This document shows positions 312-27,956 of a stretch of DNA of 64,000 bases, in pieces (within the stretch, counting starts at the first letter, position 1; the number at the start of each line of letters is the position of its first letter). The position numbers were made by a program, and so were the translations under genes. This stretch comes from an uncultured bacterium (GTDB lineage: Bacteria; Calescibacteriota; Calescibacteriia; Calescibacteriales; Calescibacteriaceae): NCBI GenBank assembly GCA_964601505.1, contig CAZRNR010000006.1, positions 2,515 through 66,514 on the forward strand, given 5' to 3'. Below the pieces are notes generated by a model, which was given only the letters and a program-made list of their open reading frames with translations, was not told where the DNA came from and searched no databases.

Positions 312-866
312 TCAACCATATGAGATAATTGATACAACCTTTATTCCTTTTGATTCTATAATTTTTCTTCCGCCAAGCTTTACAAGTTCAACTAAAAAAA
401 CTGAACCTACAACTTTTCCTCCCAGGTCCTCAACAAGCTTTATAGTTGCAGAAATTGTTCCCCCAGTAGCTATCAAGTCATCTACCACTATAACACTTTC
501 TCCTTTTTCAATAGCATCTGTATGAATTTCCACAGTAGCTGTTCCGTATTCAAGACCATACGAATATGATAGCGTTTCATAAGGAAGTTTGCCTTCTTTT
601 CTGACTATGACAAAACCCTTTTTGAACTTATACGCCAGCGGAGAACCAAGTATAAATCCCCTTGACTCAATACTCACAACCTTCTGGAAGTTTTTCGAAC
701 CTATTTCTTTCTCAACTTTGTCGGCAAGCAGATCAATAGCTTTGTGGAAGGTAGAACTGTCCTGAAGCAAAGTGGTCAAGTCATAAAACAGTATACCTTT
801 TTTCGGAAAATCGGGAACTCGCCTTATCTTTTTATCTAACTCATCAATGATTCTGTCGTCAGGCAT
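312..866 (-). CDS. apt: adenine phosphoribosyltransferase
   Basis: 184 aa. PRPP-binding motif VIVVDDLIATGGT and N-terminal FPKKGILFYD, typical of Apt. Lies 52 nt downstream of the rSAM gene on the same strand. Confidence 0.9.
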   Translation of the reverse strand: MPDDRIIDELDKKIRRVPDFPKKGILFYDLTTLLQDSSTFHKAIDLLADKVEKEIGSKNFQKVVSIESRGFILGSPLAYKFKKGFVIVRKEGKLPYETLSYSYGLEYGTATVEIHTDAIEKGESVIVVDDLIATGGTISATIKLVEDLGGKVVGSVFLVELVKLGGRKIIESKGIKVVSIISYG

Positions 867-918: not shown

Positions 919-1962
919 CTATATGAACTCAAACTGCCCGATATCTTTTTCTATAAGTTCCTCTATAACCTTGTGATATCTTATAAACCTGCAATCGAAT
1001 AGATTACAGAGTTCCGGATTTATGTTTTTTATTTTATTGATATGCTCCTCTGAACCCCATATATACTGAAATTTATTCTCGTATATGTTTCCGATTTTAT
1101 GTTGTTCCTGTCTATACGAAAAATAACAGCAAAGGAAGATATCTCCCTTTGCATCTATTGTCGTTTGAAGTGGTGTTAGAATACATCTCCTTTGAATTAA
1201 ATTTCTACCATTATATAATATCTTAAAATTGTATCTCTGCTTCAATTCTCTTATCTTTACCTCCAAAGATTTTTCTTCCTGATCAGTCAAAGATTCCTTA
1301 TCTTGCCTAAGCAATTTTATCTGCAAATTATCAAATCCCATCTTTATTGAGAACTCAACCATATTCTCCAGATCATGAATATTGTTCCTTCCAATCAAAA
1401 CCTTCATTCCAAAAACCAAGGTCGGATTATATGCTCTTCTTGAAGAGTTTATTATATTTATTCTATCGCATACCACATCCCAAGCATTTTTGATCTTTGG
1501 CTTTTGAAATTGTAGATAAACTTCCTTGCTTCCAGCATTCATTGTGATCCTTATATAGCGGAGATTTTTAGCTAAAAATTCTGCTAAATCTTCAGACATA
1601 GTTCCATTTGTAAGGATTCCAAAACTAAATCCTTTAGTTTTTCCGTAAGATATGATATCTTTTAGCTTCGGATATAAAGTCGGTTCGCCTCCTCCACAGA
1701 ACTCTATGCCCTCAACTCCTACATCTCCAAGCTCATCTAACAGGGAAATAAACCTCCGGAAATCAAGCATTATTGGTTTTGAATTTAACGAAGAATACTC
1801 ACATCCACAACAGTCATAATTGCAACCATATACAGGATATATAATAGCTGTCCTTGGATATGGTATCTTACCATTGAGTATTTGCTTTATCCTATCGTAA
1901 AATGTTAATATTCTGAGATCTTGAAAGCTTAAAGGATTATTTGAGTTGGATCCATCCATCAT
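919..1962 (-). CDS. radical SAM protein with C-terminal twitch/SPASM-like auxiliary-cluster motif
   Basis: 347 aa. CNYDCCGC matches the CX3CX2C rSAM cluster motif, and GGGEP is SAM-binding-like. The C-terminus has C-X12-G-X4-C (CILTPLQTTIDAKGDIFLC) plus CNLFDC. Confidence 0.85.
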   Translation of the reverse strand: MMDGSNSNNPLSFQDLRILTFYDRIKQILNGKIPYPRTAIIYPVYGCNYDCCGCEYSSLNSKPIMLDFRRFISLLDELGDVGVEGIEFCGGGEPTLYPKLKDIISYGKTKGFSFGILTNGTMSEDLAEFLAKNLRYIRITMNAGSKEVYLQFQKPKIKNAWDVVCDRINIINSSRRAYNPTLVFGMKVLIGRNNIHDLENMVEFSIKMGFDNLQIKLLRQDKESLTDQEEKSLEVKIRELKQRYNFKILYNGRNLIQRRCILTPLQTTIDAKGDIFLCCYFSYRQEQHKIGNIYENKFQYIWGSEEHINKIKNINPELCNLFDCRFIRYHKVIEELIEKDIGQFEFI

Positions 1963-1972
1963 AAAATATTAA

Positions 1973-3436
1973 TCAATATCCTTCCTTGTTTCCTTTTTTT
2001 GTAGCTTTCTGAAATTTATTTAGTATATCTAAGGTATTACCCAGAATAAAACCAAAAAGGAGCTGTAAGGAGAATTTGATTCCTCTTGATTTGACTATAT
2101 TTAATATCCTTGATATTCTTGAATAAAATAACACCACGGCAAGTTTCTGAATCATAACAAGATGGGAAGGTTTAAGTCGTCCTACCCCTATCACAGCAGA
2201 ACCATACCTCCTCATGTCATAACCAGAATAATAAAGCTTTGCTCCCCCTTTCCCCTCGATTACCATATCTCTGAGAACAGTCCCAGGGTATGGAGTCGCT
2301 ATATTGATATATGCAAAATCAAGATCCTTGAGAGAATAAATGAAAGATACTGTCTTCATTATCGTCTTTATGTTCTCATATGGCAAACCTATTATAACTG
2401 ACCCTCTTGTCTCAACACCTAAACTCTTAACTATTTTGTAAGCTCTCTTTATGTCATCATGATTCGTTCCTTTCTGGACCATTTTCAGTATTTCCGGATC
2501 ACCACTTTCTATACCAAAATTTATCCTCTTTAATCCCGCGCGAACCATTTGTTGGGCCAGCTTTTCATCTATTCTATTTGCGACTGTCTCACATTCAAAT
2601 GTGAAACCCAAATTTTCTTCCTCCATAAGTTTGAAAATCTCAAATGCTCTTTTTGGAACAAGAGTAATTGTATCATCTATAAATATGATATGTCCTATCT
2701 CCGGATGCTTTTTCTTTATATGCTTTAGCTCCTGAATAACATTTTCAGGAGACCTAAGCTTAACCTTAGGATATAAGATCCTTTCTGAACAAAAAATACA
2801 GCGCAAAGGGCATCCCCTTGAAGTCTGAAAAGTTGTTGCGATCCTTTCTCCAACTCCAGGAACAAACCATTTATATCTATCTATTTTGAGCTTTTCTCTT
2901 GCCGGGAATGGGATATGGTCAAACTCCATGTCCTCCTTAGGAACACCGGTGTGAATTGTTTCCCCATTCCTTCTGAATATCAGCCCCCCCACGTCTTCTA
3001 TCCTCTTACCGTCCCAAAGAAGTTTTAGAAAGATTGGGAGCCTGATCTCACAGTCGTTTGTAAGGGCAAAATCAAATTCAGGATTTTCATCCAAGACTTG
3101 TTTACCTACCAATGTCGCGTGCGGCCCACCAACTATGATAGGAATTTTGAAATTCTCTTTCACAGCTCTTGCAATCCTTTTTGCTTCTATTATTGTTGGT
3201 GTCGTAGTTGTTATCCCGACAAAATCAGGTTTTTCTCGTTTTATGTAGTTTAATATATCTTCATCTTTTAGTTCCTGAGCTTCACAATCTAAAATATCGG
3301 TATGTATACCCTCTTTCTCACAAGATGAAGCAAGATAACACAGCCCCAAAGGTGGTTCAAAATGCAAAAGTTTTGTTATAAACCTAAAACTGCCGTAAAC
3401 TCTAAGCCACCTTGGGGCTACAAGAAGTAATTTCAT
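1973..3436 (-). CDS. B12-binding domain-containing (class B) radical SAM protein
   Basis: 487 aa. N-terminal Rossmann-like cobalamin-binding region (PIIVGGPHATL). CPLRCIFC matches CX3CX2C. The C-terminus is hydrophobic then Lys-rich. A 10-nt gap separates it from the downstream rSAM gene. Confidence 0.85.
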   Translation of the reverse strand: MKLLLVAPRWLRVYGSFRFITKLLHFEPPLGLCYLASSCEKEGIHTDILDCEAQELKDEDILNYIKREKPDFVGITTTTPTIIEAKRIARAVKENFKIPIIVGGPHATLVGKQVLDENPEFDFALTNDCEIRLPIFLKLLWDGKRIEDVGGLIFRRNGETIHTGVPKEDMEFDHIPFPAREKLKIDRYKWFVPGVGERIATTFQTSRGCPLRCIFCSERILYPKVKLRSPENVIQELKHIKKKHPEIGHIIFIDDTITLVPKRAFEIFKLMEEENLGFTFECETVANRIDEKLAQQMVRAGLKRINFGIESGDPEILKMVQKGTNHDDIKRAYKIVKSLGVETRGSVIIGLPYENIKTIMKTVSFIYSLKDLDFAYINIATPYPGTVLRDMVIEGKGGAKLYYSGYDMRRYGSAVIGVGRLKPSHLVMIQKLAVVLFYSRISRILNIVKSRGIKFSLQLLFGFILGNTLDILNKFQKATKKGNKEGY

Positions 3437-3450
3437 ATCAATTTAAATCA

Positions 3451-3510
3451 TTACTTTTTAACTTTCTTCTTCTTCCCAGCAGTTGGGGCAGGTCTCCAAT
3501 TAACAAACAT
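3451..3510 (-). CDS. small ORF, 19 aa (MFVNWRPAPTAGKKKKVKK); candidate precursor or leader peptide of the rSAM operon
   Basis: Hand translation of the minus strand. ATG at 3510-3508 and TAA at 3453-3451. A perfect SD lies 7 nt upstream. The stop is 14 nt before the ATG of the B12-rSAM gene. Absent from the ORF track because it is under 60 aa. Confidence 0.5.
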   Translation of the reverse strand: MFVNWRPAPTAGKKKKVKK

Positions 3511-3517
3511 TTCCTTA

Positions 3518-3526
3518 CACCTCCTT
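3518..3526 (-). promoter_or_regulatory. Shine-Dalgarno AAGGAGGTG for the 19-codon ORF
   Basis: Reverse complement of cacctcctt, with a 7-nt spacer to the ATG. groEL in this window has the same 9-mer and the same 7-nt spacing (18862-18870). Confidence 0.55.
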
Positions 3527-3859
3527 AAATTCTAATCTAATAATTTTGCTTCAAATTGTGAGAAAAATTAAAATTGCATGTAAAAAACGAAGACGAAAAA
3601 TTATCATGGCATCACAGTTAACTTATTCCAACAAAGAGATATAGAGCTTTGCAAAGCTTAAAACTATCAAGTTCAAGAACTTCTCGAAGAATAGAATTCA
3701 ATCTATCAAAAAATTTCAATTGAGCCAAAGCAGCTAACTTAAAACTAACTTAAAGCATTGATAAAACGATTAATTGTTCGTGATTACATGGCTTTCTTTA
3801 AAATGCAATATTTCGGTTTTCGTTCTACGGTTTTTTCAAAGATTTAGAATTTTTGTTCT

Positions 3860-5602
3860 ATGAAAGTTTCGGATTTTTTTTTGTTTTCATTTAAGGAAGA
3901 GCCAAAGGATGCGGATTCCAAAAGTAATAGAGCAATGCTCAAGGGTGGATATATAAAAAAGGTAGCATCAGGAATATATTCTTTTACTCCGCTTGGATAT
4001 AAGATTCTTTCAAATGTCTCAAGAATAATAAGGGAAGAAATGGAGAAGATCGGTTGCAGAGAAATTCTACTCCCGATGATGACTCCAGCAGATCTTTGGA
4101 AAGAAACAGGTAGGTGGGATATTTACGGAAAGGAACTTATAAGATTCAAAGATAGGCACGAAAGAGATTTCTGTTTAGCACCAACACACGAGGAGATAGT
4201 TGTTGACCTTGTAAGATACTTCATAAAATCCTGGCGCGACCTTCCGTTCTCACTCTTCCAGATTGGCCAGAAGTTCAGAGACGAGCCCAGGCCAAGATTC
4301 GGTGTCATAAGATGCAAAGAATTCATAATGAAAGACGCTTATTCATTTGACAGAACTGAAGAGGAAGCAGAAAAAACATATTGGAAATTCTATCGTTCAT
4401 ACCAGAGAATATTTGAAAGACTCAAGCTTGATGTAATCCCGGTTCAAGCAGCAGTTGGAGCAATAGGAGGAAAATTCTCTCACGAGTTTATATTCCCTAC
4501 AGAGTATGGGGAAGATAGAGTGATCACTTGCTCAAATTGCTCCTATATATCAAAGAAAGAAATATCTGGGTTCTTTCTTGATCTTGATACGTACAGGAGA
4601 AAACTTGAAGATGCCAAAAATAGGATAGATAAGCCAAAAAAAATCCCCACACCAAACACAACAACTGTAGAAAAGCTTGCCGAATTCCTCAAGATACCAA
4701 CTTCAAAAATAATAAAATCTCTTTTTATAAAAACCTCTGGCGGAGAATATATACTTTGCCTTGTCAGGGGAGATAGATTCATTTCAGAAGACAAACTTTC
4801 ATATTTGTTGCACCAGGATTTTCAGATTGTAGATGAAACCGAAGTCAGGCAATTTTTTGGCGCTGGGAAGGGTTTCATAGGTCCCATGAATTTTAAAGGA
4901 AAGATAATAGCAGATAGAACCGTATTAACAGTCCCAGACGGAGTTGTAGGCGCAGATGAAGATGACTTCCACTTTATTAATGTAGTTCCCACAAGAGATT
5001 TTTCATTCACATCTGTTGAGGATATAGCATTAGCTGAAGAAGGAGACATCTGCCCTTCATGCAAAAAAGCTCCTCTGAAGGAGAAAATTGGACTTGAGTT
5101 AGGACATGTTTTTTACCTTGGCTATAAGTACTCGGTACCTATGGAACTGAAATTCGTGGATAAAGATAAGAACACAAAACATGTTGTCATGGGATGCTAT
5201 GGCATAGGAGTCTCAAGAACTGTAGCGGCTATTTTTGAAAAATATGCTGATGAAAAATCTGTAAGACTCCCCTACGAAGTATCTCCTTTCAAAATACACA
5301 TAATACCAATAAACATCAAAGACAAAGAGATAGCAGATATATCTTTTAAGATACATCAAGAATTTGAAGAAATAGCTCTGATAGATGATAGAGAGGACAT
5401 AAGTCCCGGAGAGAAGTTCGCTGATTGTGATCTTTGGGGAAGCCCTATAAAGATTGTTATTGGAAAGCTTTTCAAAGAGCAAAAGAAGATAGAAATATTC
5501 AATAGAATTTCCGGGCAAAGTGATTACGCAACCGCTGAAAACATATCACAGAAGATTCACTTTTTTATATCACAGCTTTTACCCGATTTTAGGAGATCAT
5601 AG
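3860..5602 (+). CDS. proS: proline--tRNA ligase (bacterial type with insertion/editing domain)
   Basis: 580 aa. Class II motifs FRDEPRPRFGVIRCKEF and GCYGIGVSR. Length fits the INS-domain form. Confidence 0.95.
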   Translation: MKVSDFFLFSFKEEPKDADSKSNRAMLKGGYIKKVASGIYSFTPLGYKILSNVSRIIREEMEKIGCREILLPMMTPADLWKETGRWDIYGKELIRFKDRHERDFCLAPTHEEIVVDLVRYFIKSWRDLPFSLFQIGQKFRDEPRPRFGVIRCKEFIMKDAYSFDRTEEEAEKTYWKFYRSYQRIFERLKLDVIPVQAAVGAIGGKFSHEFIFPTEYGEDRVITCSNCSYISKKEISGFFLDLDTYRRKLEDAKNRIDKPKKIPTPNTTTVEKLAEFLKIPTSKIIKSLFIKTSGGEYILCLVRGDRFISEDKLSYLLHQDFQIVDETEVRQFFGAGKGFIGPMNFKGKIIADRTVLTVPDGVVGADEDDFHFINVVPTRDFSFTSVEDIALAEEGDICPSCKKAPLKEKIGLELGHVFYLGYKYSVPMELKFVDKDKNTKHVVMGCYGIGVSRTVAAIFEKYADEKSVRLPYEVSPFKIHIIPINIKDKEIADISFKIHQEFEEIALIDDREDISPGEKFADCDLWGSPIKIVIGKLFKEQKKIEIFNRISGQSDYATAENISQKIHFFISQLLPDFRRS

Positions 5603-6354
5603 CATATCGTTTCAACAAGAGTGCTATGCCTTAATCTCTCAAGATCTGTTTGAGGTAAATTCCCAAACTTTTTTTTCTCTGGGATTCTTGGTTTTGGGAC
5701 CTCATCTGTATGAGAATACAAGATATCCTTTGAAAAACTGCCTTTTTTCAATATTTTATATTCAAGCCTTCTCAATAGAGAAAACAATTCATCATCTACC
5801 AATTCACCTTCAGCAGATGAATCATTTATAAAAAAGATATTTCTTGGAGCTAGATTTTTAACAGATATAGCTGTTTCCGTATTGAAGCGATCCTTTTCTG
5901 TCTGCTTCCATATCTCACCTTCACACTTTATACAATAAAGGAAATAACCTATATCCGAGGTAAATATTATTAATTTCCCCCCGGAAACCCTTGCAAAAAA
6001 AGGTGTCCCGAAGAAACTTATAATTTCGCTATGCCTCTCAACATTTGTAAAATCAATAAAAATCCTACCATAGAAGAAGGTAAGGTTATCTTTGAAAACA
6101 CCAACCTTTGTTTCCTCATCTACTATCATTTCAATATTCTCCGATGGTTTATATAAACTCTGCTTTGTCAGGAAAAGTTTTGAGAATCTCCCAGATTTCA
6201 GGAAAAAATCAAAATCTGGTAAAGCTATTGCGTTAATATTTTTCTGGGATATCCTGACCTCATTTTCTTTGATCGAAAGGATGGAGTTATTACCATCAAT
6301 GTATTCTATATTCCAGCCAAGAGATAGAACTAACAAAAGAAGATTTTGAAGCAT
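5557..6354 (-). CDS. hypothetical secreted protein
   Basis: 265 aa. Hydrophobic N-terminus MLQNLLLLVLSLGW. GGGAGAG-type SD upstream. Its 3' end overlaps proS by 46 nt in convergent orientation. I recognise no family. Confidence 0.6.
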   Translation of the reverse strand: MLQNLLLLVLSLGWNIEYIDGNNSILSIKENEVRISQKNINAIALPDFDFFLKSGRFSKLFLTKQSLYKPSENIEMIVDEETKVGVFKDNLTFFYGRIFIDFTNVERHSEIISFFGTPFFARVSGGKLIIFTSDIGYFLYCIKCEGEIWKQTEKDRFNTETAISVKNLAPRNIFFINDSSAEGELVDDELFSLLRRLEYKILKKGSFSKDILYSHTDEVPKPRIPEKKKFGNLPQTDLERLRHSTLVETICYDLLKSGKSCDIKK

Positions 6355-6386
6355 TTTTTTATCTACTCTCCCTTCTTAAACGAATT

Positions 6387-7070
6387 TCAGATTCCTCTAC
6401 CATCCTTCCTTTCTTCTTCTGCAAAGGCTGATATTATATCCGATATTTTGTCTTTTATAACTTCCATTTCTGCCGATGAGAGAGGATTTTTTGAATAATA
6501 TATCACAAGATCTTTTATAGCTTCCATCTTTCTTGAGGATACAAACCTTGATAATTTCTCTTGTGAATCTTTATTAGCAAGTATCACAGCTAATTCCTTT
6601 TCCGATAAAAGTGATATAAACTTGCTTATCTTTTCTGGAGGGAGCTCGAGTATCTGTTGGAATAAATCTGAACCCTCAGTCTTTTCTTCCCTGATTTTTT
6701 TCCCAGTTTCCTTCTCGGCTCTAGTTTTCGAGAGTTTTTCAGTTGATTTCGCTACCCTTTCTGCAAGATTCACTATTATAGCCTTTGCCGTCTTTGGATA
6801 TTTTGAAACTATTTCGTCTATCCCCCCGTTATATACAACTAGTTCACTTCTCTCAACAGCCTTACAAGTAGCTGTTCTTTTTGTCCCTAGTATCGCGCTT
6901 ATCTCACCTATAGGAGAATTAGGCTTATCTACAATGCCTATCATATCATCTCCCTTATATATACCTATCTTCCCAGATACAAGGAAATATATTGATTTTC
7001 CAGTTTCCCCTTCCCTTATTATCTCTTCTCCTTTTTCGTATATCAGAGTCCCCTTATGAGTTTTATGCAT
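6387..7070 (-). CDS. cyclic nucleotide-binding domain protein with C-terminal FliG/MgtE-N-like helical region
   Basis: 227 aa. cNMP-binding beta-barrel signature (GEEIIREGETGKSIYFLVSGK ... GEISAILGTKRTATCKA). The C-terminus LPPEKISKFISLLSEKELAVILANK resembles FliG/MgtE-N repeats by eye. Confidence 0.7.
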   Translation of the reverse strand: MHKTHKGTLIYEKGEEIIREGETGKSIYFLVSGKIGIYKGDDMIGIVDKPNSPIGEISAILGTKRTATCKAVERSELVVYNGGIDEIVSKYPKTAKAIIVNLAERVAKSTEKLSKTRAEKETGKKIREEKTEGSDLFQQILELPPEKISKFISLLSEKELAVILANKDSQEKLSRFVSSRKMEAIKDLVIYYSKNPLSSAEMEVIKDKISDIISAFAEEERKDGRGI

Positions 7071-7127
7071 ACTTTTAGTATATACATTCTGTAAGCTTTT
7101 TATGCAATATTATCATATTTTTGATTT

Positions 7128-7520
7128 CTAATCTTCCTTTTTCAGTGGTCTTCTTCTTGAACAAGGCTCATCTATATTGTGAAACCATCCAATTTCAGAT
7201 TCTTCAAATATGCGGCAACATAGCATTACCTCATCTCCCTCAAATTGAGAGAGTATGTCAACTGTACCATGCTCAATGTCTCTAAGTATGACCGAATAAC
7301 CTTCAAGTTGATTCATTATATCCCTGAGTTCTTTTCTTGTATTCATTATTTTATCAAGTACCCCATCTCTATCATACGGAGAATTTCTGAAATTAGCAAC
7401 AAGGCGTGAAGCTTCAATGTGATATCTTGAATAATCGTGTGCTTTAGCTTTTATGTCTTTAACAATGGGGTGTATTTTCTTGATGAGAATTTGAGCTTCA
7501 TCTATTGAGTATTTTTTCAT
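7128..7520 (-). CDS. DUF2203 family protein
   Basis: 130 aa from MKKYSIDEAQ. The pattern GYSVILRDIEHGTVD ... EVMLCCRIFEESEIGWFHNIDEPCSRRRPL matches DUF2203. The track ORF start (7559) runs into the tRNA gene, so I trimmed it to the ATG at 7520. Confidence 0.7.
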   Translation of the reverse strand: MKKYSIDEAQILIKKIHPIVKDIKAKAHDYSRYHIEASRLVANFRNSPYDRDGVLDKIMNTRKELRDIMNQLEGYSVILRDIEHGTVDILSQFEGDEVMLCCRIFEESEIGWFHNIDEPCSRRRPLKKED

Positions 7521-7529
7521 AGTAAAGTA

Positions 7530-7601
7530 TGGCGACGGTGGGATTCGAACCCACGACACGGGGCTTATGAGACCCCTGCTCTACCTCTGAGCTACGTCGC
7601 C
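7530..7601 (-). tRNA. tRNA with CAT anticodon (elongator Met, or Ile2 if lysidine-modified)
   Basis: Cloverleaf folded by hand. Acceptor GGCGACG/CGTCGCC. D arm GCTC-AGAGGTA-GAGC. Anticodon arm GGGGT-CTCATAA-GCCCC. T arm GTGGG-TTCGAAT-CCCAC. Discriminator A. G1-C72 are paired, so it is not an initiator. CCA is not encoded. Confidence 0.85.
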
Positions 7602-7663
7602 CTTAAATAAAAATATTTATGTAAAACATAACATCAAAAGCACAATATCAAAATAAAATCATC

Positions 7664-8194
7664 GTGGAGGTAATTAGCAAAACACGAGATAAAATCGAAA
7701 AAATAAGAAACATAAGTTTCTTCAAATATATAAGTAGCGAAGATTTTGCGGAAGCCGAGAAATACATAAGTATAATAAAGTTCAAATCTGGAGAGGACAT
7801 AGTTAGAGAAGGTGAAAGAGCAGGGGGTCTCTTTATAATTATTTCCGGTGTATGCAAAGTGATAAAGGGAAATGTTGAAGTCGGAAAAGTTAGAGCTGAG
7901 GAGTTCTTCGGAGAAGGAGAAATACTTCTTCAAAGTCCTGCCTACGCTACAATAAGAGCTGAATCTGATGAAGTTGAAGTCGTGTATATGATAAGGGGCG
8001 GTATAGAGCAACTTGAAAGAAAAAACCCAAGATTTACATCTACATTATACAAACTGATTGCCAAGATAGAAATGAAAAGACTACTCACCCTCGATAGAGA
8101 ATATGTAGCGGTCATTGATAAACTTGAGAATATACAGAGAAAAGAAGAACTCAAAAAAATAAGAGAAAAAATGTTTGGTGAAATAAAAGAATAA
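7664..8194 (+). CDS. cyclic nucleotide-binding domain protein
   Basis: 176 aa with a GTG start. cNMP-binding signature (GEDIVREGERAGGLFIIISG ... FFGEGEILLQSPAYATIRA). Coiled-coil-like C-terminus. Confidence 0.75.
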   Translation: MEVISKTRDKIEKIRNISFFKYISSEDFAEAEKYISIIKFKSGEDIVREGERAGGLFIIISGVCKVIKGNVEVGKVRAEEFFGEGEILLQSPAYATIRAESDEVEVVYMIRGGIEQLERKNPRFTSTLYKLIAKIEMKRLLTLDREYVAVIDKLENIQRKEELKKIREKMFGEIKE

Positions 8195-8216
8195 ATAAAA
8201 TAAAAATAATAAAAAT

Positions 8217-9692
8217 CTATAATCTTCCATAAGTCTGGCAAAGAGACCTTATCTTCTGAGCCAAATCCCCATATTCAAAATTATACGGTATCTTCCATAA
8301 CCAATTTCCCTCTTTAGTTCCTGGTGTGTTCATACGAGCATCGCTCCCGATAAAGTCCTGCATCTGAATTATAGCGAATTTTGAAACAGATGAAAAAGCT
8401 AACCTTATCATCTCCCATGAGACCTGACTTTCATCAATTTTCCTACCAATGTAGGAAAAAAAATTGTTTTTTGTTCTATCATCTAAACTTCTGAACCAAG
8501 CTATCGCGGGCGGGTTATCATGCGTTCCAATATAGCAAGCAGAGTTTGCAGAATAGTTATGAGGTAAGTATTCACTATTTTTATCGTAAAAAGCAAATTC
8601 AAGAACTTTCATCCCAGCAAACCCGAATTTATCCCTTATGTACTTTACATCTTCAGTAATGAAACCAAGATCTTCAACTATTATTCTTTCTCTGCTAATT
8701 ATTCCCAAAACTCTTTTGAAAAATTTTTCCGATGGTACTTTACACCATCTACCATTTACAGCTGTCTTCTCACCAAAAGGTACTTCCCAGAAAGCTATAA
8801 AGCCCCGGAAATGATCTAATCTTATAATATCATAAATAGAACTGTAAAACTCAAGCCTTCTTGCCCAAAATTCAAAGTTTGTACTTTCAAGCTTCTCCCA
8901 GTCATATAATGGATTCCCCCAAAGCTGTCCAGTTTCACTGAAGAAATCAGGTGGAACACCAGCTACATATTTCGGAACTAAATTTATATCTAACTTAAAA
9001 ATCTCCGGATTACACCACACATCACAACTATCATAAGATGGGTATATTGGCACATCACCTATAATCAAAACTCCTTTTGATTTTGCATATTTCCTCAGTT
9101 CATCCCACTGCTCAAAGAATATAAACTGCTCAAATTTGAAAAACTCTATCTGTTCCCTCATAGAATCCTTAAGGTTGCGTATATTTTTTCTTAACTTAAT
9201 ATCTTCATCGCACTGGTGCCATTCCCTTCCACCTTCTGTTCTTATCGCTTGTAGTAAAGCATAGTCTTCAAGCCAAAAAGAATTCCTTTCACAAAAGAAA
9301 TCAAATCTTCCACTACTTTTGACCCTCCGATGTGATTCTTCATAAGCTTTCATCAACAGATACCTTTTGTATCTATATACAAAATCGTAGTCTATTTTAT
9401 CTGATCCAATCTGATGCGATAGCTCACTTCTATCTTTTATATATCCTTTTTCAAAAAGTTTTTCCGGACTTATAAATATGTAATTTCCGGCAAAAAGAGA
9501 CAAAGAGTGATATGGAGAGTTATAGAAAGCAGGAGATGTTGGACCAATTGGTAATACCTGCCATAAAGATATACCAGCTTCTGAGAGAAAATCAATAAAT
9601 CTAAAGGCACTATACCCTAAGTCTCCTATTCCGTACTCCGAGGGGAGAGATGCGATGTGCAACAAAACTCCGGCCTTTCTATCGAAAAACAT
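8217..9692 (-). CDS. malQ: 4-alpha-glucanotransferase (GH77 amylomaltase)
   Basis: N-terminus MFFDRKAGVLLHIASLPSEYGIGDLG and DHFRGF, typical of MalQ. I chose the start at ATG 9692; the track start at 9755 would overlap tatD. Confidence 0.9.
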   Translation of the reverse strand: MFFDRKAGVLLHIASLPSEYGIGDLGYSAFRFIDFLSEAGISLWQVLPIGPTSPAFYNSPYHSLSLFAGNYIFISPEKLFEKGYIKDRSELSHQIGSDKIDYDFVYRYKRYLLMKAYEESHRRVKSSGRFDFFCERNSFWLEDYALLQAIRTEGGREWHQCDEDIKLRKNIRNLKDSMREQIEFFKFEQFIFFEQWDELRKYAKSKGVLIIGDVPIYPSYDSCDVWCNPEIFKLDINLVPKYVAGVPPDFFSETGQLWGNPLYDWEKLESTNFEFWARRLEFYSSIYDIIRLDHFRGFIAFWEVPFGEKTAVNGRWCKVPSEKFFKRVLGIISRERIIVEDLGFITEDVKYIRDKFGFAGMKVLEFAFYDKNSEYLPHNYSANSACYIGTHDNPPAIAWFRSLDDRTKNNFFSYIGRKIDESQVSWEMIRLAFSSVSKFAIIQMQDFIGSDARMNTPGTKEGNWLWKIPYNFEYGDLAQKIRSLCQTYGRL

Positions 9693-9699
9693 ATAAAAT

Positions 9700-10458
9700 T
9701 CAACGCAGAAAAATTCTTTCAAAATTCCTGATGAAAACCTGCGATAGCTCCTCAAAACTTTCCTCCCTTATCTCAGATATTTTTTCAACGACGAACCTCA
9801 CATAAGACGGTTCATTCTCTCTACCCCTGACAGGGGAAAGAAAAGGAGAATCAGTTTCTACGATAGTTTTTTCTATATCAGATACCTTTAAACACCTTTG
9901 TATTTTTTTAGAGTATGTTACCATACCCGAAAAGGAGGTGAAAAAACCGTTATCTTGTGCCTTTTTGAGTTCAAATTCACTCCAACTGAATGAATGGAAA
10001 ACAGCACTTTTACACTCAAATTTCTTCAACATGTCAAAACATACATCAAAGGCTGAACCATATTTATGATTTACCCCCCTTGTGTGTATGACCAAAGGTT
10101 TCCCAGTTCTTAAAGCTAAACATATATGAAACCTGAAAAGTTCAATTTGTTTCTCTATTTCATTCACATCTTCTGTTCTATAAAAATCAAGACCAGTTTC
10201 TCCTATAGCGACAACCTTTGCCTCTTTGGAAAAATCCTCCACATATTTCAGATCCTCCTCCTTCCATCTACTAAGCGGATGTATTCCGACAGAGCAAAAG
10301 ACATTATCAAAGCTCTCAGATATATCCAAAATCTTTCGATTATCATCTGACTCAACCGCAACGCATAGTATATACTTGACTCCATTATCCAGAGCCCTAC
10401 TAACAGCTTCTTTAGGTCCAATAGATAGGAACTGCAGGTGAGCATGAGAATCTACCAT
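9700..10458 (-). CDS. tatD: TatD family metal-dependent hydrolase/DNase
   Basis: 252 aa. N-terminal DSHAHL, plus GETGLD, VIHTR and ETDSPFL motifs. Confidence 0.9.
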   Translation of the reverse strand: MVDSHAHLQFLSIGPKEAVSRALDNGVKYILCVAVESDDNRKILDISESFDNVFCSVGIHPLSRWKEEDLKYVEDFSKEAKVVAIGETGLDFYRTEDVNEIEKQIELFRFHICLALRTGKPLVIHTRGVNHKYGSAFDVCFDMLKKFECKSAVFHSFSWSEFELKKAQDNGFFTSFSGMVTYSKKIQRCLKVSDIEKTIVETDSPFLSPVRGRENEPSYVRFVVEKISEIREESFEELSQVFIRNFERIFLR

Positions 10459-10490
10459 AACAGGAAAATGATTAAATAAATATTTTACAA

Positions 10491-11168
10491 GTGAGTATAG
10501 TAAAAAGATTAAATCAGATTTTTCATTTCAACGATTCAATTTCAAAAATACTGCGTATGCAAAAAGTCTTTGTTTCAGATATAGCAGACTCAATACACTG
10601 CGAATGGAAAAAAATCCTTGAAAAAATGTATGGTAAGAAAATAAATAAAGCAATGAAAATGGGAACAAAAATACACGAAGAATATTTTTCATACAATGTA
10701 AAAGATCCGGATAAGGCGGAAGAGAAAATGGCAAACGGAGAACCTGTTGAATTCTCATCTAAGGTGAATTTTATAGACCGCAATAGAAAAATTATAGTTT
10801 CAGGCCAAGTTGATTCTGCTACCTTTGAAAAAGACCATATAGTGAAAATAGTTGAACTGAAAACAAGAAAAGAGTTGAAAATTTATAACTCAGACATAAT
10901 TCAAGCGGGAACATATGCTCTTTGCTTTGAGAAAATGTTAAAAAAAACACTAGATGATCTTGAAATACAGATAAAAGTGAAGCTGAGGGAATCAAACCAA
11001 GAGCATCTAGAGCAATACAAGTTTGGCGATATCAGAAAATATGTTCTAGAGAAAGTTGAAAAGAACCTTGATTTTTGGGCTAATATGAGAGAACCAAAAA
11101 TAGCAGATTCTTTATCTATATGCCAGATTTGCAGCTTTTTTAAAATTTGCGATAAAAAGAAAATATGA
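10491..11168 (+). CDS. Cas4-like PD-(D/E)XK nuclease (DUF83-type, 4-Cys)
   Basis: 225 aa. One N-terminal Cys (HCEW). D ... ELK core (QVDSATFEKDHIVKIVELKTRK). QAGTYALC (QxxxY). C-terminal CQICSFFKIC matches CX2CX5C. Confidence 0.65.
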   Translation: MSIVKRLNQIFHFNDSISKILRMQKVFVSDIADSIHCEWKKILEKMYGKKINKAMKMGTKIHEEYFSYNVKDPDKAEEKMANGEPVEFSSKVNFIDRNRKIIVSGQVDSATFEKDHIVKIVELKTRKELKIYNSDIIQAGTYALCFEKMLKKTLDDLEIQIKVKLRESNQEHLEQYKFGDIRKYVLEKVEKNLDFWANMREPKIADSLSICQICSFFKICDKKKI

Positions 11169-12355
11169 AAAAGATCAGAGTTCTATTCGTTCATAACTAC
11201 TATCAATTCAGGGGTGGAGAAGACGAAATGGCAGACCTTGATACAAAATTGCTCGAAAAAAATGGTCACGATGTTTTCTTCTTTTGGAAACACAATAAAG
11301 AGATAAATAATTATTCGCCTACTGAAAAGATATCTTTGGTCCTAAAACCTACTTTTTCTCTCCAGATCTATTTTAAGATATTGAAGATCATCAGTGAATT
11401 CAGACCCGATGTAATTCACATAAATAATTTCTTCCCATTAATATCTCCTTCGGTAATATATGCTGGCTTGAGAAAAAAGGTCCCAGTTGTCATGTCATTA
11501 CACGACTTCAGATTGATATGTGCAAACGGTCTTCTTTTAAGAAATTCAAAGATATGTGAAAAATGCTTTGATTCTCCAATATTCAGTCTGATTTATGGTT
11601 GCTACAGAAACTCAAGAACTCAAACTTTTCCAGTATATCTTATGATATCACTCCACAAAGTGCTAGATACATGGAGTAAAGGCATCTCAGCTTTCATCAC
11701 TCCTTCTGATTTTGTGAGAAGAAAGTTTATAGATGCTGGATTTGCTGCAAACAAAATATTCGTCAGACCGAACTATGTTGAAGATGATTTCGTAAGGAGA
11801 TTTGAGAACAGAGGGTTTCAAAAGGGCAATTACTTTGTTTTTGTTGGTAGGTTGAGCGAGGAGAAGGGAATCAAGATCTTACTTTCCGCGTGGGACATAC
11901 TTAAGAAGGAAAATTTGAGATTTAAACTCAAGATAGCAGGAGATGGACCACTTATGGGATATGTCAGAGCAAAAGCACGCGAAAATGATCTTGTAGAGGT
12001 ACTCGGTTTTGTAAAGAAAGAGAATTTGGTTGGAGTTATAGCTGAAGCCAAAGCTATGATTGTTCCATCTATATGGTATGAAGTTTTTGGGAGAACAGTT
12101 ATAGAATCTTATGCTTTGGGAACACCTGTCCTTGCTAGCAAAATAGGAGCACTGAAAGATATAGTGATAGATGGTGTAACGGGAGCACTCTTTGAACCAA
12201 CTCCTCAGAACATAATCGGAAAGATCAAAAATACAACACCAGAGGAGATAAAATCATGGGGCCAGAACGCAAGGAAAGAATATCTAAATAAATACACAGA
12301 AGAAATAGCTTACAATAATCTCATAGCAATATATGAAAGCGTTGTAAATACATAA
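11165..12355 (+). CDS. glycosyltransferase family 4
   Basis: 396 aa. GT-B fold with the C-terminal EX7E-type region PSIWYEVFGRTVIESYALGTPVLAS. Its start overlaps the upstream stop (ATGA). Confidence 0.85.
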   Translation: MKKIRVLFVHNYYQFRGGEDEMADLDTKLLEKNGHDVFFFWKHNKEINNYSPTEKISLVLKPTFSLQIYFKILKIISEFRPDVIHINNFFPLISPSVIYAGLRKKVPVVMSLHDFRLICANGLLLRNSKICEKCFDSPIFSLIYGCYRNSRTQTFPVYLMISLHKVLDTWSKGISAFITPSDFVRRKFIDAGFAANKIFVRPNYVEDDFVRRFENRGFQKGNYFVFVGRLSEEKGIKILLSAWDILKKENLRFKLKIAGDGPLMGYVRAKARENDLVEVLGFVKKENLVGVIAEAKAMIVPSIWYEVFGRTVIESYALGTPVLASKIGALKDIVIDGVTGALFEPTPQNIIGKIKNTTPEEIKSWGQNARKEYLNKYTEEIAYNNLIAIYESVVNT

Positions 12356-12442
12356 TTATTAAAAAAAGATTGCATGGAGAATGAGAATATTTTTATAAGC
12401 TTTCAAAAACTATTTTGGAAAACTTATCATAACAGCACAACA

Positions 12443-14779
12443 TCACTTAAGAGCATTTAGCATAAGAGCACCAGCTGTAAGCCCCTGAAAAGAAACGGAA
12501 AGCACATCTCTTATAATGTACCAAGTTTCGTAAGGAATCACTACACGCGGAGGGACAACTATCGTATCTCCGGGATTGACTTTTGATAAATTTGTATCTG
12601 CTTGACCATTTGCCCTTATTATGAATACTTCTGACTTGTTGGCATACTTCGTATATCCACCAGACAATTCAACATAGAATTTTACTCCTTTATCTGGTAC
12701 ATAGGAGAATGTCGCAGGATTTTTCACTTCCCCAGCAACTATGACATGCGATGGAATCTGTGGAATTAATACAGCATCATCTGGTTGAAGCTCTATATTG
12801 TACTTTGAATCCTTTAATTTTTCAAGATCCCTATCAATTTTCAATACAATTCTCCCTGTGAATTCAGATAACTCCATAATATATCTCATCAACCTCACTC
12901 TATCAGATAGATCCCCCGGTTGCCTGATAGGAGTTCCACCCATCTGGACATACTGAGAAGATTCTCCAATTATATCCTTTGTGAGCAATTGGGTTACCAG
13001 GTCTATTCTTCTCATCTGTTCATACTTCAGTGCCTGCCTCGTGAAAATAATTCCGTCAGTGTAAGCTCTATCTGTAAATCCCCCAGCTTTTTTCAGAAGA
13101 TCGTAAAGCCTATCACCTTTCTGCACCATATATTTCCCCGGAAATAAAACCTCCCCAGATACACTGACCTGTATGAACTGTGGAACTTCATTTTCTGGAG
13201 GTGGAAAAATCGTTATCCTGTCGTAAGGCAATATTATCTCATCTTTTAGTAGATCAATTATGGCATTTAGATCTTTTTTCCTTGTCTCCTCCGGTATTTT
13301 CTTGTAGATTTTGGTTTCTTTACCATTTTCATATCTTATTATCTCATAAGCATACGGAGAATTTATTGAAGTAAATCCACCAGATAGCATAATTGCGTCT
13401 TTCAACGTCATATTCTCAACATAAGGTATTTTCTGAGGCTTTCTTACATAACCTGACACGAAAATGTATTTATCTTCTTGTTCTGCGAATAATGGATAAA
13501 CTTCAACAAAATCTCCATCTACAAGCTCCTGGGACGATAGTATATTCTCTCTGTTTTCATCTCCTACGATTATATCCAAAATGTTTCCTCTTCTGTCGAC
13601 CGAAAGTCTCTTTATTCTTATTCTAAACTTACCCTGCGCTGGTATAAATCCGCCAGATAGTGTTACAGCATCTTTGAGACTAATTTTCTCACCAATCATT
13701 TCGTATATACCTGGGGACTTAACTGATCCGGAGATTGCGAATGTAGAACCCACTCGTGGAACAAATACCACATCCCATGCTTTAAGAGTGACCCCACTCA
13801 GGGCTCCCTCCGACACTCCCCCAAATATAAGGTCATACAGGTCTATCCTTGCAAAAAACTTACCATCCCTTCTTATCTCTATGTTTCTCAAGGAACCTGA
13901 ATTCTTTATACCTCCTGCCTCCTGTATTGCTTCAAACGGAGAGAGCGTCCCAGAAAGTATTATAACCCCCGGATTTCTTACCTCACCAACAACAACAACA
14001 GGTATTGACTTTAATGATGATAAGGATACCGCAACCTCAACATCTCCAAGAACCCTCCTGACTGCTGATCTTACAATTTCAGAAGCTGACTCCAGCGTCA
14101 TACCACCAACAGACACTGGTCCAACTAAAGGTATAAAAACCCTACCGTCGTGTAAGATAGTTACCATCATAGGGAACGAGAGAACATCCGGCAATTTGAC
14201 TCTTCCCCATACATATAAAAATAGAGAATCCCCAGGACCCAATGTATAGCCCTGAGATATAAACTGAGTCGAAATTTTTTTATCTGGACGGGCGTAGGTT
14301 AAATCGTAGCCGATCTGCCTCAGAACCTCAGTTTTTATTCCAAGTTCTGGTCCAGCAGAATAAAATTTTTCCAATATCGGAATCTCCCTTATTATCTCAA
14401 GATAGCGCCTCATAATATATCTTTCAAGATCAATTGGATTGGTTATAAGGTATAATTCATCCAAAAAATCAATAGAGCTGATAATATCTTTTTGTGATAG
14501 AATAACCAGGAGTTTCTCCAAAGTAGATTTTGATATTTTATCCGAAATTGAAGCAAGAATCTTTTTCTTTTCTTCCGGAAGAAGATTGTAGATATCCGAT
14601 TCTCTAAGAAGCTTTGATTTTTCTATGTTTTTATGCAATGGTGAAAAAGTGTCCATTTCTTCTTCTTGAGCAAGACCTCTTGTTTCTTGAACAAGACCTC
14701 CCGTTTCACCTTGAGCATATGCCGAAATCAAAAAGATCTGCACTACACACAAAAACAACGATATATTCTTTTTCAGCAT
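12443..14779 (-). CDS. polysaccharide export protein (Wza-like, multiple SLBB-type repeats)
   Basis: 778 aa. Signal peptide. Poly_export-like LGPGDSLFLYVWG, followed by repeated soluble-ligand-binding beta-grasp-like segments. Confidence 0.8.
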   Translation of the reverse strand: MLKKNISLFLCVVQIFLISAYAQGETGGLVQETRGLAQEEEMDTFSPLHKNIEKSKLLRESDIYNLLPEEKKKILASISDKISKSTLEKLLVILSQKDIISSIDFLDELYLITNPIDLERYIMRRYLEIIREIPILEKFYSAGPELGIKTEVLRQIGYDLTYARPDKKISTQFISQGYTLGPGDSLFLYVWGRVKLPDVLSFPMMVTILHDGRVFIPLVGPVSVGGMTLESASEIVRSAVRRVLGDVEVAVSLSSLKSIPVVVVGEVRNPGVIILSGTLSPFEAIQEAGGIKNSGSLRNIEIRRDGKFFARIDLYDLIFGGVSEGALSGVTLKAWDVVFVPRVGSTFAISGSVKSPGIYEMIGEKISLKDAVTLSGGFIPAQGKFRIRIKRLSVDRRGNILDIIVGDENRENILSSQELVDGDFVEVYPLFAEQEDKYIFVSGYVRKPQKIPYVENMTLKDAIMLSGGFTSINSPYAYEIIRYENGKETKIYKKIPEETRKKDLNAIIDLLKDEIILPYDRITIFPPPENEVPQFIQVSVSGEVLFPGKYMVQKGDRLYDLLKKAGGFTDRAYTDGIIFTRQALKYEQMRRIDLVTQLLTKDIIGESSQYVQMGGTPIRQPGDLSDRVRLMRYIMELSEFTGRIVLKIDRDLEKLKDSKYNIELQPDDAVLIPQIPSHVIVAGEVKNPATFSYVPDKGVKFYVELSGGYTKYANKSEVFIIRANGQADTNLSKVNPGDTIVVPPRVVIPYETWYIIRDVLSVSFQGLTAGALMLNALK

Positions 14780-14895
14780 GCATACTATGTTTATCTTGGG
14801 CTATAAAATAAGCTAAAAATCAGCTTTTAAAAGATCGGAAGAAAACATATCAATTCACCTCATACCATTATCTAGGAAGGATAAAATTAAAATCA

Positions 14896-15717
14896 ATGAG
14901 GAACATCCCCATAGTTTTTCTGACAGATTATGGTTTGAAAGATGAATATGTAGGTGTTATAAAGTGTGTTATATATCGTATAAATCCGAAGGCAAAAATC
15001 ATAGATATAACACACGATATAAAATCATATAGCGTGTTATCTGGGACATATATAATAGATAAAATAATGAATTATGTTCCCTTACCTTGTGTCATTCTTG
15101 GTGTAGTAGATCCTGGTGTTGGTAGTACAAGAGAGGAGATATTCGGTTTTTCTTATGTCAGTAAGAGTAAAATTTTTTTCGTTGGACCGAACAATGGTTT
15201 ATTTACTCCACTTTTTTCATACAAACACAAAGTTTTCCAAATAGATACCAAAGAGCTGCTGAAAAAAGCCAGAAAGTTTAAACTTGATCTTTATGTTTCA
15301 AACACTTTTCATGGGAGGGATATATTTGCCCCTGTTGCTGCTTTCCTATCATTGGGATCAGACTATAAATCTTTGATAAAAAAAGAAATCGAAAATCCTG
15401 TTTTATGCGAAATACCAATGGTTCACCAAGAAGGCTCAATCATAAGAGGAAAAGTTCTCCACATAGACAGCTTTGGAAACATAATAACAAATATAAAAGA
15501 CATCTATTTAGATAAAGTTAAAAATTTTGAACTTTCCATAGGAGATAAAAACATAGGTGGGATCAGGATTATCTCTTCATATCTTGAGGGTAAGCCCAAT
15601 GAGATATTTGGAATCATTGGTTCATATAGAACTCTGGAAATTTCTGTCAGGGAAGGAAGTGCTGCTACATTATTGGGAGTTAGAGTATCCGATGATGTTT
15701 CAATAAAAATCAAATGA
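14896..15717 (+). CDS. SAM hydrolase / SAM hydroxide adenosyltransferase family protein (DUF62)
   Basis: 273 aa. N-terminal VFLTDYGLKDEYVGVIKCVI and VVDPGVGS, characteristic of DUF62. Confidence 0.8.
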   Translation: MRNIPIVFLTDYGLKDEYVGVIKCVIYRINPKAKIIDITHDIKSYSVLSGTYIIDKIMNYVPLPCVILGVVDPGVGSTREEIFGFSYVSKSKIFFVGPNNGLFTPLFSYKHKVFQIDTKELLKKARKFKLDLYVSNTFHGRDIFAPVAAFLSLGSDYKSLIKKEIENPVLCEIPMVHQEGSIIRGKVLHIDSFGNIITNIKDIYLDKVKNFELSIGDKNIGGIRIISSYLEGKPNEIFGIIGSYRTLEISVREGSAATLLGVRVSDDVSIKIK

Positions 15718-18854: not shown

Positions 18855-18880
18855 ATTGCTTCACCTCCTTTTTTATTCTT

Positions 18881-27926: not shown

Positions 27927-27927
27927 T

Positions 27928-27956
27928 AAAAAAGGGGGTATCTAAGCCCCCTTTTA
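27928..27956 (+). terminator. rho-independent terminator (A-tract / GGGGG-8-CCCCC / T-tract; potentially bidirectional)
   Basis: aaaaaaGGGGGtatctaagCCCCCtttt immediately after the pncA stop. Confidence 0.7.

Follow-up and report, generated by a model that had tools for sequence, protein, structure and literature searches.

The window analyzed here, a stretch of 64,000 nucleotides (nt) from an uncultured bacterium of the phylum Calescibacteriota (assembly GCA_964601505.1, contig CAZRNR010000006.1, positions 2,515 to 66,514), carries on its minus strand a very short gene that lies directly upstream of the genes for two radical S-adenosylmethionine (radical-SAM) enzymes. This small gene is very probably real and translated. 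It specifies a 19-residue peptide, MFVNWRPAPTAGKKKKVKK, and recurs upstream of orthologous enzyme pairs in three diverged relatives, where the order of the cassette (peptide, cobalamin- or B12-binding radical-SAM enzyme, SPASM radical-SAM enzyme) is the same as in the window. As for its role, we infer, tentatively, that the peptide is a leaderless substrate or precursor of the two enzymes. Standard annotation overlooks the gene, which is shorter than 30 codons, though it is conserved and probably highly expressed.

The small gene occupies positions 3451-3510 (minus strand), with its ATG at 3510-3508 and 19 sense codons before the stop TAA (3453-3451): ATG TTT GTT AAT TGG AGA CCT GCC CCA ACT GCT GGG AAG AAG AAG AAA GTT AAA AAG TAA. 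Its product consists of a hydrophobic N-terminus, an invariant WRPAP core, a variable linker of three residues, and a lysine tail. A Shine-Dalgarno (SD) site, AAGGAGGTG (3518-3526, minus strand), precedes the ATG and is separated from it by the 7-nt spacer TAAGGAA. These elements had been described in a first-pass annotation of the same DNA, and the SD at 3526-3518, the spacer, the 19-codon open reading frame (ORF) and its translation are all borne out by the sequence, as is the gap of exactly 14 nt between the TAA and the ATG (3436) of the B12 radical-SAM gene. That gap (3437-3450, minus strand) lacks an SD and any meaningful structure, and it starts with a second in-frame stop, TGA (3450-3448), so that the gene is closed by the tandem stop TAATGA (3448-3453, minus strand).

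The case for a gene rests primarily on comparison with contigs from three diverged close relatives (L001, L003, and L004), which together with the window represent four lineages whose enzymes share 67-84% identity. The peptide is MFVNWRPAPMGGKKKKGKK in L001 (19 residues; SD context CAAGGAGGTG), MIINWRPAPLSGKKKKIKK in L003 (19 residues; TAAGGAGGTG), and MIAGWRPAPQPSKKKKKAKK in L004 (20 residues; AGAGGAGGTG), and the GGAGGTG of the SD is kept in all three relatives. In the DNA alignment, the conserved block coincides exactly with the SD and the ORF, while both flanks have diverged and contain indels. The start, frame, length (19-20 residues), and stop position are preserved across the four lineages, and the sole difference in length is one whole codon. 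Among the alignable codons, 5 of 17 first positions and 4 of 17 second positions vary, as do 11 of 17 third positions. Within WRPAP, codon positions 1 and 2 are unchanged, whereas all three fourfold-degenerate third positions vary (CCT/CCA/CCG, GCC/GCT, and CCA/CCG/CCT); the single Trp codon is unchanged, and the Arg codon AGA is also invariant. At the strain level, six contigs of the window's own species encode an identical peptide, and the only differences within their ORFs are a synonymous change from AAA to AAG and a 3-nt deletion that removes the TAA. Where this deletion occurs, in some of the strains (L095, L099, and L100), exactly 3 nt are lost and translation ends at the adjacent TGA, with no effect on the peptide. 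The lysine tails use AAG in 14 of 25 codons, compared with 36% genome-wide, a preference that is only suggestive because the sequences are not independent. On this pattern of substitution, we conclude that the ORF is protein-coding and that its amino acid sequence is under purifying selection.

An alternative account is that the frame is open by chance and happens to adjoin a strong SD-like sequence, or that the conserved element acts as DNA or RNA and does not code for a peptide. The frame is indeed very short, lysine codon runs are common in AT-rich DNA, and one of the four window copies of the SD 9-mer (at 9932) is not followed by an ORF. Nevertheless, retention of the start, frame, length, and stop in four lineages, in the presence of synonymous substitutions and a whole-codon indel, largely refutes this account, as do the strong over-representation of the SD 9-mer relative to shuffled sequence and the lack of covarying structure, and it can be regarded as highly improbable. 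When the four lineages are compared with RNAalifold, conserved structure is not seen (5 invariant pairs, -1.7 kcal/mol, no covariation). Rfam contains no relevant match to the locus, and on neither strand do all four lineages share another frame equipped with a start and an SD. A conserved small ORF with conserved synteny upstream of orthologous enzyme pairs, for which the first-pass annotation had suggested a search, is found in three diverged relatives, and the preservation of frame, length, SD, and motif in them indicates that the ORF is more than chance. The peptide itself matches no Pfam or NCBIfam model (E-values up to 10 for the 20-residue forms), and a literature search on WRPAP returned no relevant paper.

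The initiation site of the small gene is exceptional for this genome. In a census of 45 long ORFs, strong SD sites (at least 8 matching bases) occur only at groEL (10 bases) and rplA (8 bases), and most of the ORFs have none. Across 47 window starts, at least 8 complementary bases are found only at groEL, groES, rplA, and two tiny lysine-rich frames, and the SD of the small gene ranks among the top three of the 47. The resemblance to groEL reported earlier is exact: groEL (start 18854) carries the same 9-mer (18862-18870) at the same 7-nt spacing, and groES and rplA carry the 8-mer AAGGAGGT. The number of 9-mer copies in the window requires correction from two to four, against an expectation of 0.47, and none of 100 shuffles reaches four. 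Strong SDs appear to be reserved in this genome for a handful of very highly expressed genes. Because the peptide has one of the strongest ribosome-binding sites in a mostly SD-less genome, it is probably made in large amounts relative to the two enzymes, whose genes lack SDs. The B12 radical-SAM gene is indeed without an SD, as the first-pass annotation stated, but this is no sign of translational coupling, as had been supposed, because SD-less starts are the rule in this genome and most long ORFs of the window share them; unlike the SD of the small gene, the SD-less start of the enzyme gene is not exceptional.

The remaining copies of the 9-mer have different surroundings. One (27841-27849) precedes a second tiny lysine-rich frame, MATTKKGSAKAKQKAKSKKAKK, at 27858-27926 on the plus strand, which ends in the double stop TAATAA and is followed by a strong terminator-like hairpin (GGGGG..CCCCC, then TTTT; region 27841-27955). 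AAGAATAAAAAAGGAGGTG, the 19 nt upstream of this frame, also occurs unchanged upstream of groEL (18862-18880). An upstream ORF with an isochorismatase domain (starting at 26961), which has a long lysine-rich extension at residues ~190-321, runs on into the frame without interruption. The possibilities are therefore a separate mini-gene, an internal start, or simply the end of the isochorismatase-domain protein. The fourth copy of AAGGAGGTG (9932-9940, plus strand) has no start codon 3-12 nt downstream and lies antisense within a TatD-like gene (9700-10458, minus strand).

The distance between the peptide stop and the enzyme start differs among lineages, amounting to 14 nt in the window, 33 nt in L001, and ~73 and 130 nt in the remaining two, where the enzyme start of L004 is taken as the ATG at about position 700, which aligns with those of the other orthologues. 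The gap of L001, like that of the window, is unstructured, and the gap of L003 contains an 11-bp hairpin followed by a U-run, which resembles a terminator. From the arrangement in the window, the first-pass annotation had suggested both co-transcription and translational coupling. The first of these is plausible, considering the shared strand, the 14-nt gap, and a gene order kept in four lineages, and no terminator-like site is called between the small gene and the enzyme genes in the window. Translational coupling does not hold up as the conserved feature because of the variable gap, the unstructured spacers of the window and L001, and the terminator-like hairpin of L003, in a genome where SD-less starts are the rule. 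Judging by the four lineages, what is conserved instead is that the peptide has a very strong initiation site and the enzymes have none.

These observations also bear on the possibility that the ORF is a regulatory leader peptide, the translation of which, or the stalling of ribosomes at the Pro-rich WRPAP or in the lysine run, would control how much the downstream radical-SAM genes are translated or transcribed, through termination-reinitiation coupling or nascent-chain arrest. The next gene on the same strand has no SD and starts only a short way beyond the ORF (14 nt in the window and 33 nt in L001), the ORF is conserved at the amino acid level as is typical of arrest peptides, and its composition is suggestive: Pro-containing motifs and lysine runs slow ribosomes, as exemplified by SecM, the RAPP-type motif of ApdA, and poly-lysine stalling. 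Moreover, homologous enzyme pairs function elsewhere without the peptide, and the terminator-like hairpin of L003 follows the ORF. Nonetheless, a leader function is distinctly unlikely. The ORF and the downstream start are not connected by any conserved RNA structure, and a spacing of 14-130 nt means that coupling cannot be the conserved function. Since SD-less starts are the genomic norm, the enzyme gene needs no special rescue. Conservation that reaches the C-terminus at a fixed length is not expected downstream of an arrest site, both AAG and AAA serve as lysine codons while three of the four lineages lack a long A-run, and WRPAP matches none of the RAPP, RAPG, and RAGP arrest motifs.

The two enzymes fall into well-known radical-SAM superfamilies, class B and SPASM/twitch, and are unremarkable representatives of them, but neither belongs to a characterized equivalog. 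The second gene of the cassette (1973-3436, minus strand) encodes a protein of 487 residues with PF02310 (77 bits) and PF04055 (107 bits) domains, in which the CxxxCxxC cysteines C209, C213, and C216 are invariant; these features place it in class B of the radical-SAM enzymes, and cobalamin binding is predicted. It reaches no NCBIfam equivalog cutoff (Sden_1168 P-methylase, 166 bits vs. 575; HpnJ, 165 vs. 578), further NCBIfam hits being BchE and ApyD. The AlphaFold model (predicted local distance difference test, pLDDT, 92) has AprD4, TsrM, OxsB, MgmA, CysS, and TokK as fold neighbors in the PDB, and the nearest solved structures by sequence are AprD4, MgmA (9ccb), OxsB, and TokK. Database homologues of this protein fall at 99%, 84%, 80%, and 75% identity, the last three values being those of the orthologues in the close relatives, and then directly at ~45%.

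The third gene (919-1962, minus strand) begins 10 nt after the stop of the second and encodes a protein of 347 residues with PF04055 and PF13186 domains (the latter at 36.6 bits, compared with a cutoff of 21.5). C47, C51, C54, C260, C278, C279, C319, and C324 are invariant. In all 40 aligned family members (alignment A3), the protein ends in a conserved QFEFI-COOH with F346 invariant, and C89 is invariant as well. The sequence pattern identifies a SPASM/twitch protein in which five C-terminal cysteines would accommodate a single, twitch-like auxiliary cluster with the same likelihood as two; the cysteine count across the family hints at the single cluster rather than a full SPASM pair. No NCBIfam cutoff is reached, the best score being that of the tungsten-cofactor maturase (80 bits vs. 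380). The AlphaFold model (pLDDT 93) resembles SuiB, DesII, SkfB, BlsE, CteB, anSME, and PqqE; SuiB is the top Foldseek match by E-value, although the similarity covers the core only (TM-scores 0.66/0.55), and BlsE has the best TM-score. The solved structures closest to the protein in sequence are those of BlsE, TYW1, and viperin-like proteins. Pfam and NCBIfam detect no RiPP recognition element (RRE; RiPP, a peptide made by the ribosome and then modified post-translationally) or PqqD domain in either protein, and the stretch ahead of the CxxxCxxC motif of the SPASM protein is only ~45 residues long. The fold search, intended to separate peptide from sugar substrates, does not decide between them, as the neighbors of both enzymes are mixed.

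The peptide has so far been found only in the four lineages that have close enzyme orthologues, all of them Candidatus Calescibacterium-like hot-spring bacteria. The window's GroEL shares 94% identity with its counterparts in metagenome-assembled genomes named Candidatus Calescibacterium sp. and 84% with the GroEL of "bacterium HR19." A study from Yellowstone (PMC11696919) describes Calescibacterium as an aerobic heterotroph of streamer communities at 82-84 °C, with a GC content of ~34%; the genus is abundant in these communities, for which metatranscriptomes exist (Octopus Spring). A search for WRPAP in 94 loci, comprising loci of enzyme homologues and seven loci from a pattern scan, found no further convincing member, and a subsequent scan, in which all the loci were checked for SD-led ORFs ending in a lysine-rich stretch, likewise found none. 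The pattern scan, in which JGI metagenomes were searched with a degenerate DNA pattern for W-R-P-A-P-x3-K4, yielded seven hits that were all rejected as chance-like, being either longer GC-rich frames or frames with no start and no SD. A scan of a genome collection based on the B12 radical-SAM alignment, which relied on the generic motif RGCPxxCxxC, produced matches that, among those listed, all had 27-37% identity, and none of these had the peptide.

In contrast to the peptide, the enzyme pair is widespread. The SPASM family is small (114 database hits), and its members at 35-45% identity usually adjoin a homologue of the B12 enzyme; pairs of this kind occur in Smithella, Omnitrophota, Bathyarchaeia, Anaeromyxobacter, and others (L103-L105, L107, L005, L007; P0179, P0181, P0185). 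The neighbors of these members include GT2 glycosyltransferases, PMT_2-type glycosyltransferases of the GT-C class, UbiA, an epimerase, and large unannotated proteins, and some family members are fusions of SPASM and GT2 domains of ~598 residues. Small SD-led ORFs were not found near the distant enzyme pairs except in one cluster of the cultured bacterium Alkaliphilus serpentinus (L106, WBZB01000025.1). There, a SPASM homologue with 36% identity is located inside a long operon that opens with an SD-led ORF of 24 codons, MKKYVAPKAKEIQFPAALMPDMPK (L106 1536-1610), and continues (1690-14963) with genes for an unknown protein of 285 residues, PqqD, a CPBP protease, an ABC exporter, an MTAP-like enzyme, the SPASM radical-SAM enzyme, a GT2 protein, YdjC, a B12 radical-SAM enzyme, a PEP (phosphoenolpyruvate)-utilizing enzyme, NDK, and a nucleotidyltransferase. 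The B12 radical-SAM enzyme of this operon is only 23% identical to that of the window. From its gene content, the locus looks like an uncharacterized RiPP-like cluster that also carries sugar genes.

According to the reading favoured here, the peptide would be a leaderless, RiPP-like or cofactor-like precursor for both enzymes, with the invariant WRPAP core as the site of modification. The cobalamin enzyme might, for example, C-methylate WRPAP, and the SPASM enzyme might introduce a radical C-C cross-link or perform other hydrogen-abstraction chemistry on the same core. The conserved lysine tail would serve either as a follower or handle for enzyme recognition or as the binder of a polyanionic target. 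Because no protease or exporter is encoded, the modified peptide would act at full length inside the cell. This reading is favoured because of the order-keeping linkage of the three genes, the invariant non-basic core of residues that radical-SAM enzymes can modify, and the high asymmetry of initiation between peptide and enzymes. The cassette order is constant while the neighboring genes differ. The asymmetry (a peptide with the 9-mer SD of groEL and enzymes with none, and in L003 a hairpin between the genes) is typical of precursor/enzyme pairs. Both enzyme classes are common in peptide maturation, and their structural neighbors include SuiB, SkfB, CteB, anSME, PqqE, TsrM, and MgmA. The Alkaliphilus operon, in which a related SPASM enzyme is accompanied by a 24-codon ORF, PqqD, a CPBP protease, and an ABC exporter, points in the same direction. 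With respect to the usual definition of a RiPP precursor, a short ORF linked to modification enzymes is present in four lineages; there is no N-terminal leader and no RRE or PqqD domain, and the lysine tail could be a follower.

A number of observations weigh against a substrate role. None of the four lineages has an RRE or PqqD, a leader, a protease, an exporter, or an immunity gene at the locus, and the dedicated protease, exporter, and immunity gene of a typical RiPP cluster are absent from the flanking genes. Enzyme pairs with 40-45% identity are widespread in the company of GT2, PMT_2 (GT-C), UbiA, and an epimerase and have no comparable small ORF, a family context that suggests a glycolipid, glycan, or lipid as the substrate. 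In two contigs of the relatives (L101 and L102), the SPASM gene faces a second, convergent B12 radical-SAM gene that has PMT_2 after it, and in L004 the fragment of a convergent downstream gene also resembles the C-terminus of a radical-SAM enzyme. Sugars or nucleosides are the substrates of BlsE, AprD4, and OxsB, the closest solved relatives in sequence, and BlsE also gives the best TM-score for the SPASM model. If the enzymes contained an acidic dock for the lysine tail, clade-specific acidic columns might be enriched, but acidic and basic columns number 13 and 11 in one enzyme comparison and 3 and 4 in the other, with no excess. Finally, the gene is known from four lineages only. The glycosyltransferase context does not exclude peptides as substrates, because GT2 is also the family of the peptide glycosyltransferases of glycocins.

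The same observations lend some weight to a different role, in which the peptide would be a small polycationic protein of high abundance, or an accessory factor, that is co-transcribed with the enzymes but not modified by them and binds a polyanion (RNA, ribosome, DNA, anionic membrane lipids, or an anionic substrate of the enzymes), and the enzymes would act on a glycan or lipid as their more distant homologues do. The wider enzyme family resides in GT2, PMT_2, and UbiA contexts without the peptide, and an RRE, a protease, and an exporter are lacking. An SD of groEL and rplA grade in a genome that rarely uses SDs suggests structural abundance, a second tiny lysine-rich frame has the same SD (27858-27926), and long lysine-rich tails occur elsewhere in the genome. 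Tiny basic ribosomal proteins such as Thx and bL37 provide a precedent. However, such a role is rather unlikely, considering that the gene remains tightly linked, in constant order, to two enzymes across different genomic neighborhoods and is confined to lineages carrying this enzyme pair. Simple charge-based binding leaves the invariant non-basic WRPAP core unexplained, and neither Pfam nor NCBIfam relates the peptide to Thx or to another family of small proteins.

Should the substrate reading be correct in its fullest form, the cassette would represent a new, minimal class of radical-SAM-modified peptide: a leaderless polycation of 19 residues whose WRPAP core is modified by both enzymes, with no RRE, protease, or exporter, and which is translated at a level like that of a chaperonin in a bacterium living at ~80 °C. 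Its product would then be either a cofactor derived from the peptide or a modified polycation that is abundant and acts on ribosomes, nucleic acids, or membranes. We regard this more specific proposal as possible but doubtful. If the peptide is indeed the substrate of the enzymes, radical-SAM peptide maturation can work on a leaderless substrate of 19 residues without an RRE, which would offer a useful minimal system for enzymology. A substrate role would also add a new class of product from the Calescibacteriota, an uncultured, deep-branching, hyperthermophilic phylum, and provide a functional handle on the widespread and uncharacterized pair of B12 radical-SAM and SPASM genes.

The genes around the cassette differ among lineages. 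In the window, proS (3860-5602) is divergent from the cassette, and apt (adenine phosphoribosyltransferase; 312-866, minus strand), an NCBIfam equivalog above cutoff, begins 52 nt downstream of the SPASM gene; proS and apt flank the cassette on opposite sides in both the window and L001. The context gene apt, although possibly co-transcribed, lies outside the conserved cassette, which it follows in the window and L001 but not in L004. The latter instead has a gene for a CheY-like receiver upstream and a convergent downstream gene fragment, the radical-SAM-like C-terminus of which was mentioned above. Adenine-salvage genes are found beside radical-SAM genes in more than one setting, the window and L001 having apt and the Alkaliphilus cluster a gene for an MTAP-like phosphorylase (L106 6147-6962). 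They could be linked to recycling of the by-product 5'-deoxyadenosine, or their position could be a coincidence. Upstream of the small gene, a candidate promoter (TTTACA and CACAAT separated by 18 nt; 3555-3584, minus strand) lies ~30 nt before the SD and has 9 of 12 matches, which is weak evidence, and a promoter scan of the region finds no more promoter-like sites around the small gene than in shuffled sequence. At the matching position, the motif TTTTTCACA is common to the window, L001, and L003 (alignment A2).

In the lineage represented by L003, L102, and L101, the cassette has a further peculiarity. The SPASM gene of L101 is directly preceded by a CRISPR-like array (5423-5820) with six copies of a repeat of ~30 nt, AACCAGACCCGTACATAAGGGGATTGCGA, at a period of 66-76 nt, and the repeat is also present at positions 1-40 of L102 and at the end of L003. 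L003, with the B12 radical-SAM gene, and L102, with the SPASM gene, are two contigs of one sample that both break at repeat-bearing sequence, and the array probably separates the two enzyme genes in this lineage. Short-read assemblies of the lineage break at the array.

Among characterized systems, pyrroloquinoline quinone (PQQ; PqqA/PqqE/PqqD) and mycofactocin (MftA/MftB/MftC) share with the cassette a very short first gene, theirs encoding ~23-30 residues, and a radical-SAM/SPASM enzyme, and their products stay intracellular. PqqE and MftC are weak sequence matches of the SPASM protein, and PqqE is also a structural neighbor. In contrast to PqqA, which has a Glu-X3-Tyr motif, the peptide has no Glu or Tyr; the SPASM protein scores 39 bits against the PqqE model (TIGR02109; cutoff 381), and no PqqD gene is present. 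The differences from mycofactocin are similar, as the score against the MftC model is 44 bits (TIGR03962; cutoff 265), the peptide ends in KK rather than the Val-Tyr of MftA, and there is no MftB. Unlike either system, the cassette lacks downstream tailoring genes and has a cobalamin radical-SAM enzyme instead. Streptide (SuiA/SuiB, KxxxW) and tryglysin (WgkA/WgkB) resemble it in that a peptide containing Trp and Lys adjoins a SPASM radical-SAM enzyme, but the peptide has neither a KxxxW or WGK motif nor a leader, and the WgkB model (NF050035) gives 40 bits against a cutoff of 650. Moreover, the enzyme here is ~100 residues shorter, lacks the N-terminal RRE, and is not accompanied by a transporter or protease gene.

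Leader and arrest peptides (ErmCL, TnaC, SecM, and the RAPP-type ApdA/ApcA) are likewise short conserved ORFs with a strong SD of their own that lie directly upstream of another gene and contain Pro. In contrast to these, the cassette has no conserved attenuator or SD-sequestering structure and no covariation, nor does overlap couple the ORF to the downstream gene; the spacing is variable, conservation extends to the C-terminus, and the motif is not of a known arrest type. The wider family of B12 and SPASM pairs in Smithella, Omnitrophota, and Bathyarchaeia is similar in its adjacent homologous enzymes, which are 35-45% identical and share the C-terminal QFEFI and the Cys pattern. Those loci, however, have glycosyltransferase or prenyltransferase partners and no ORF with WRPAP and a lysine tail, whereas in Calescibacterium the peptide is part of the cassette and a GT2 gene does not adjoin it.

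Cobalamin radical-SAM methylation, as performed by the bottromycin methyltransferases, PoyC, and the Arg and Gln methylases of methyl-coenzyme M reductase (MCR; Mmp10 and MgmA), offers a parallel for the other enzyme, in that a class B enzyme is located beside a peptide and MgmA and TsrM are structural neighbors. The B12 protein scores below the cutoffs of peptide-methylase models (92 bits vs. 282 for the RiPP C-methyltransferase model TIGR03975 and 90 vs. 360 for the MgmA-type model), its closest solved relative is the sugar diol-dehydratase AprD4, and methylation by it is putative. Trp, Arg, and Pro, the residues that make up most of the WRPAP core, are known targets of cobalamin radical-SAM methylases, and the bottromycin precursor, which has no N-terminal leader and uses a C-terminal follower, shows that a leaderless architecture like the one proposed here has a counterpart among known peptides.

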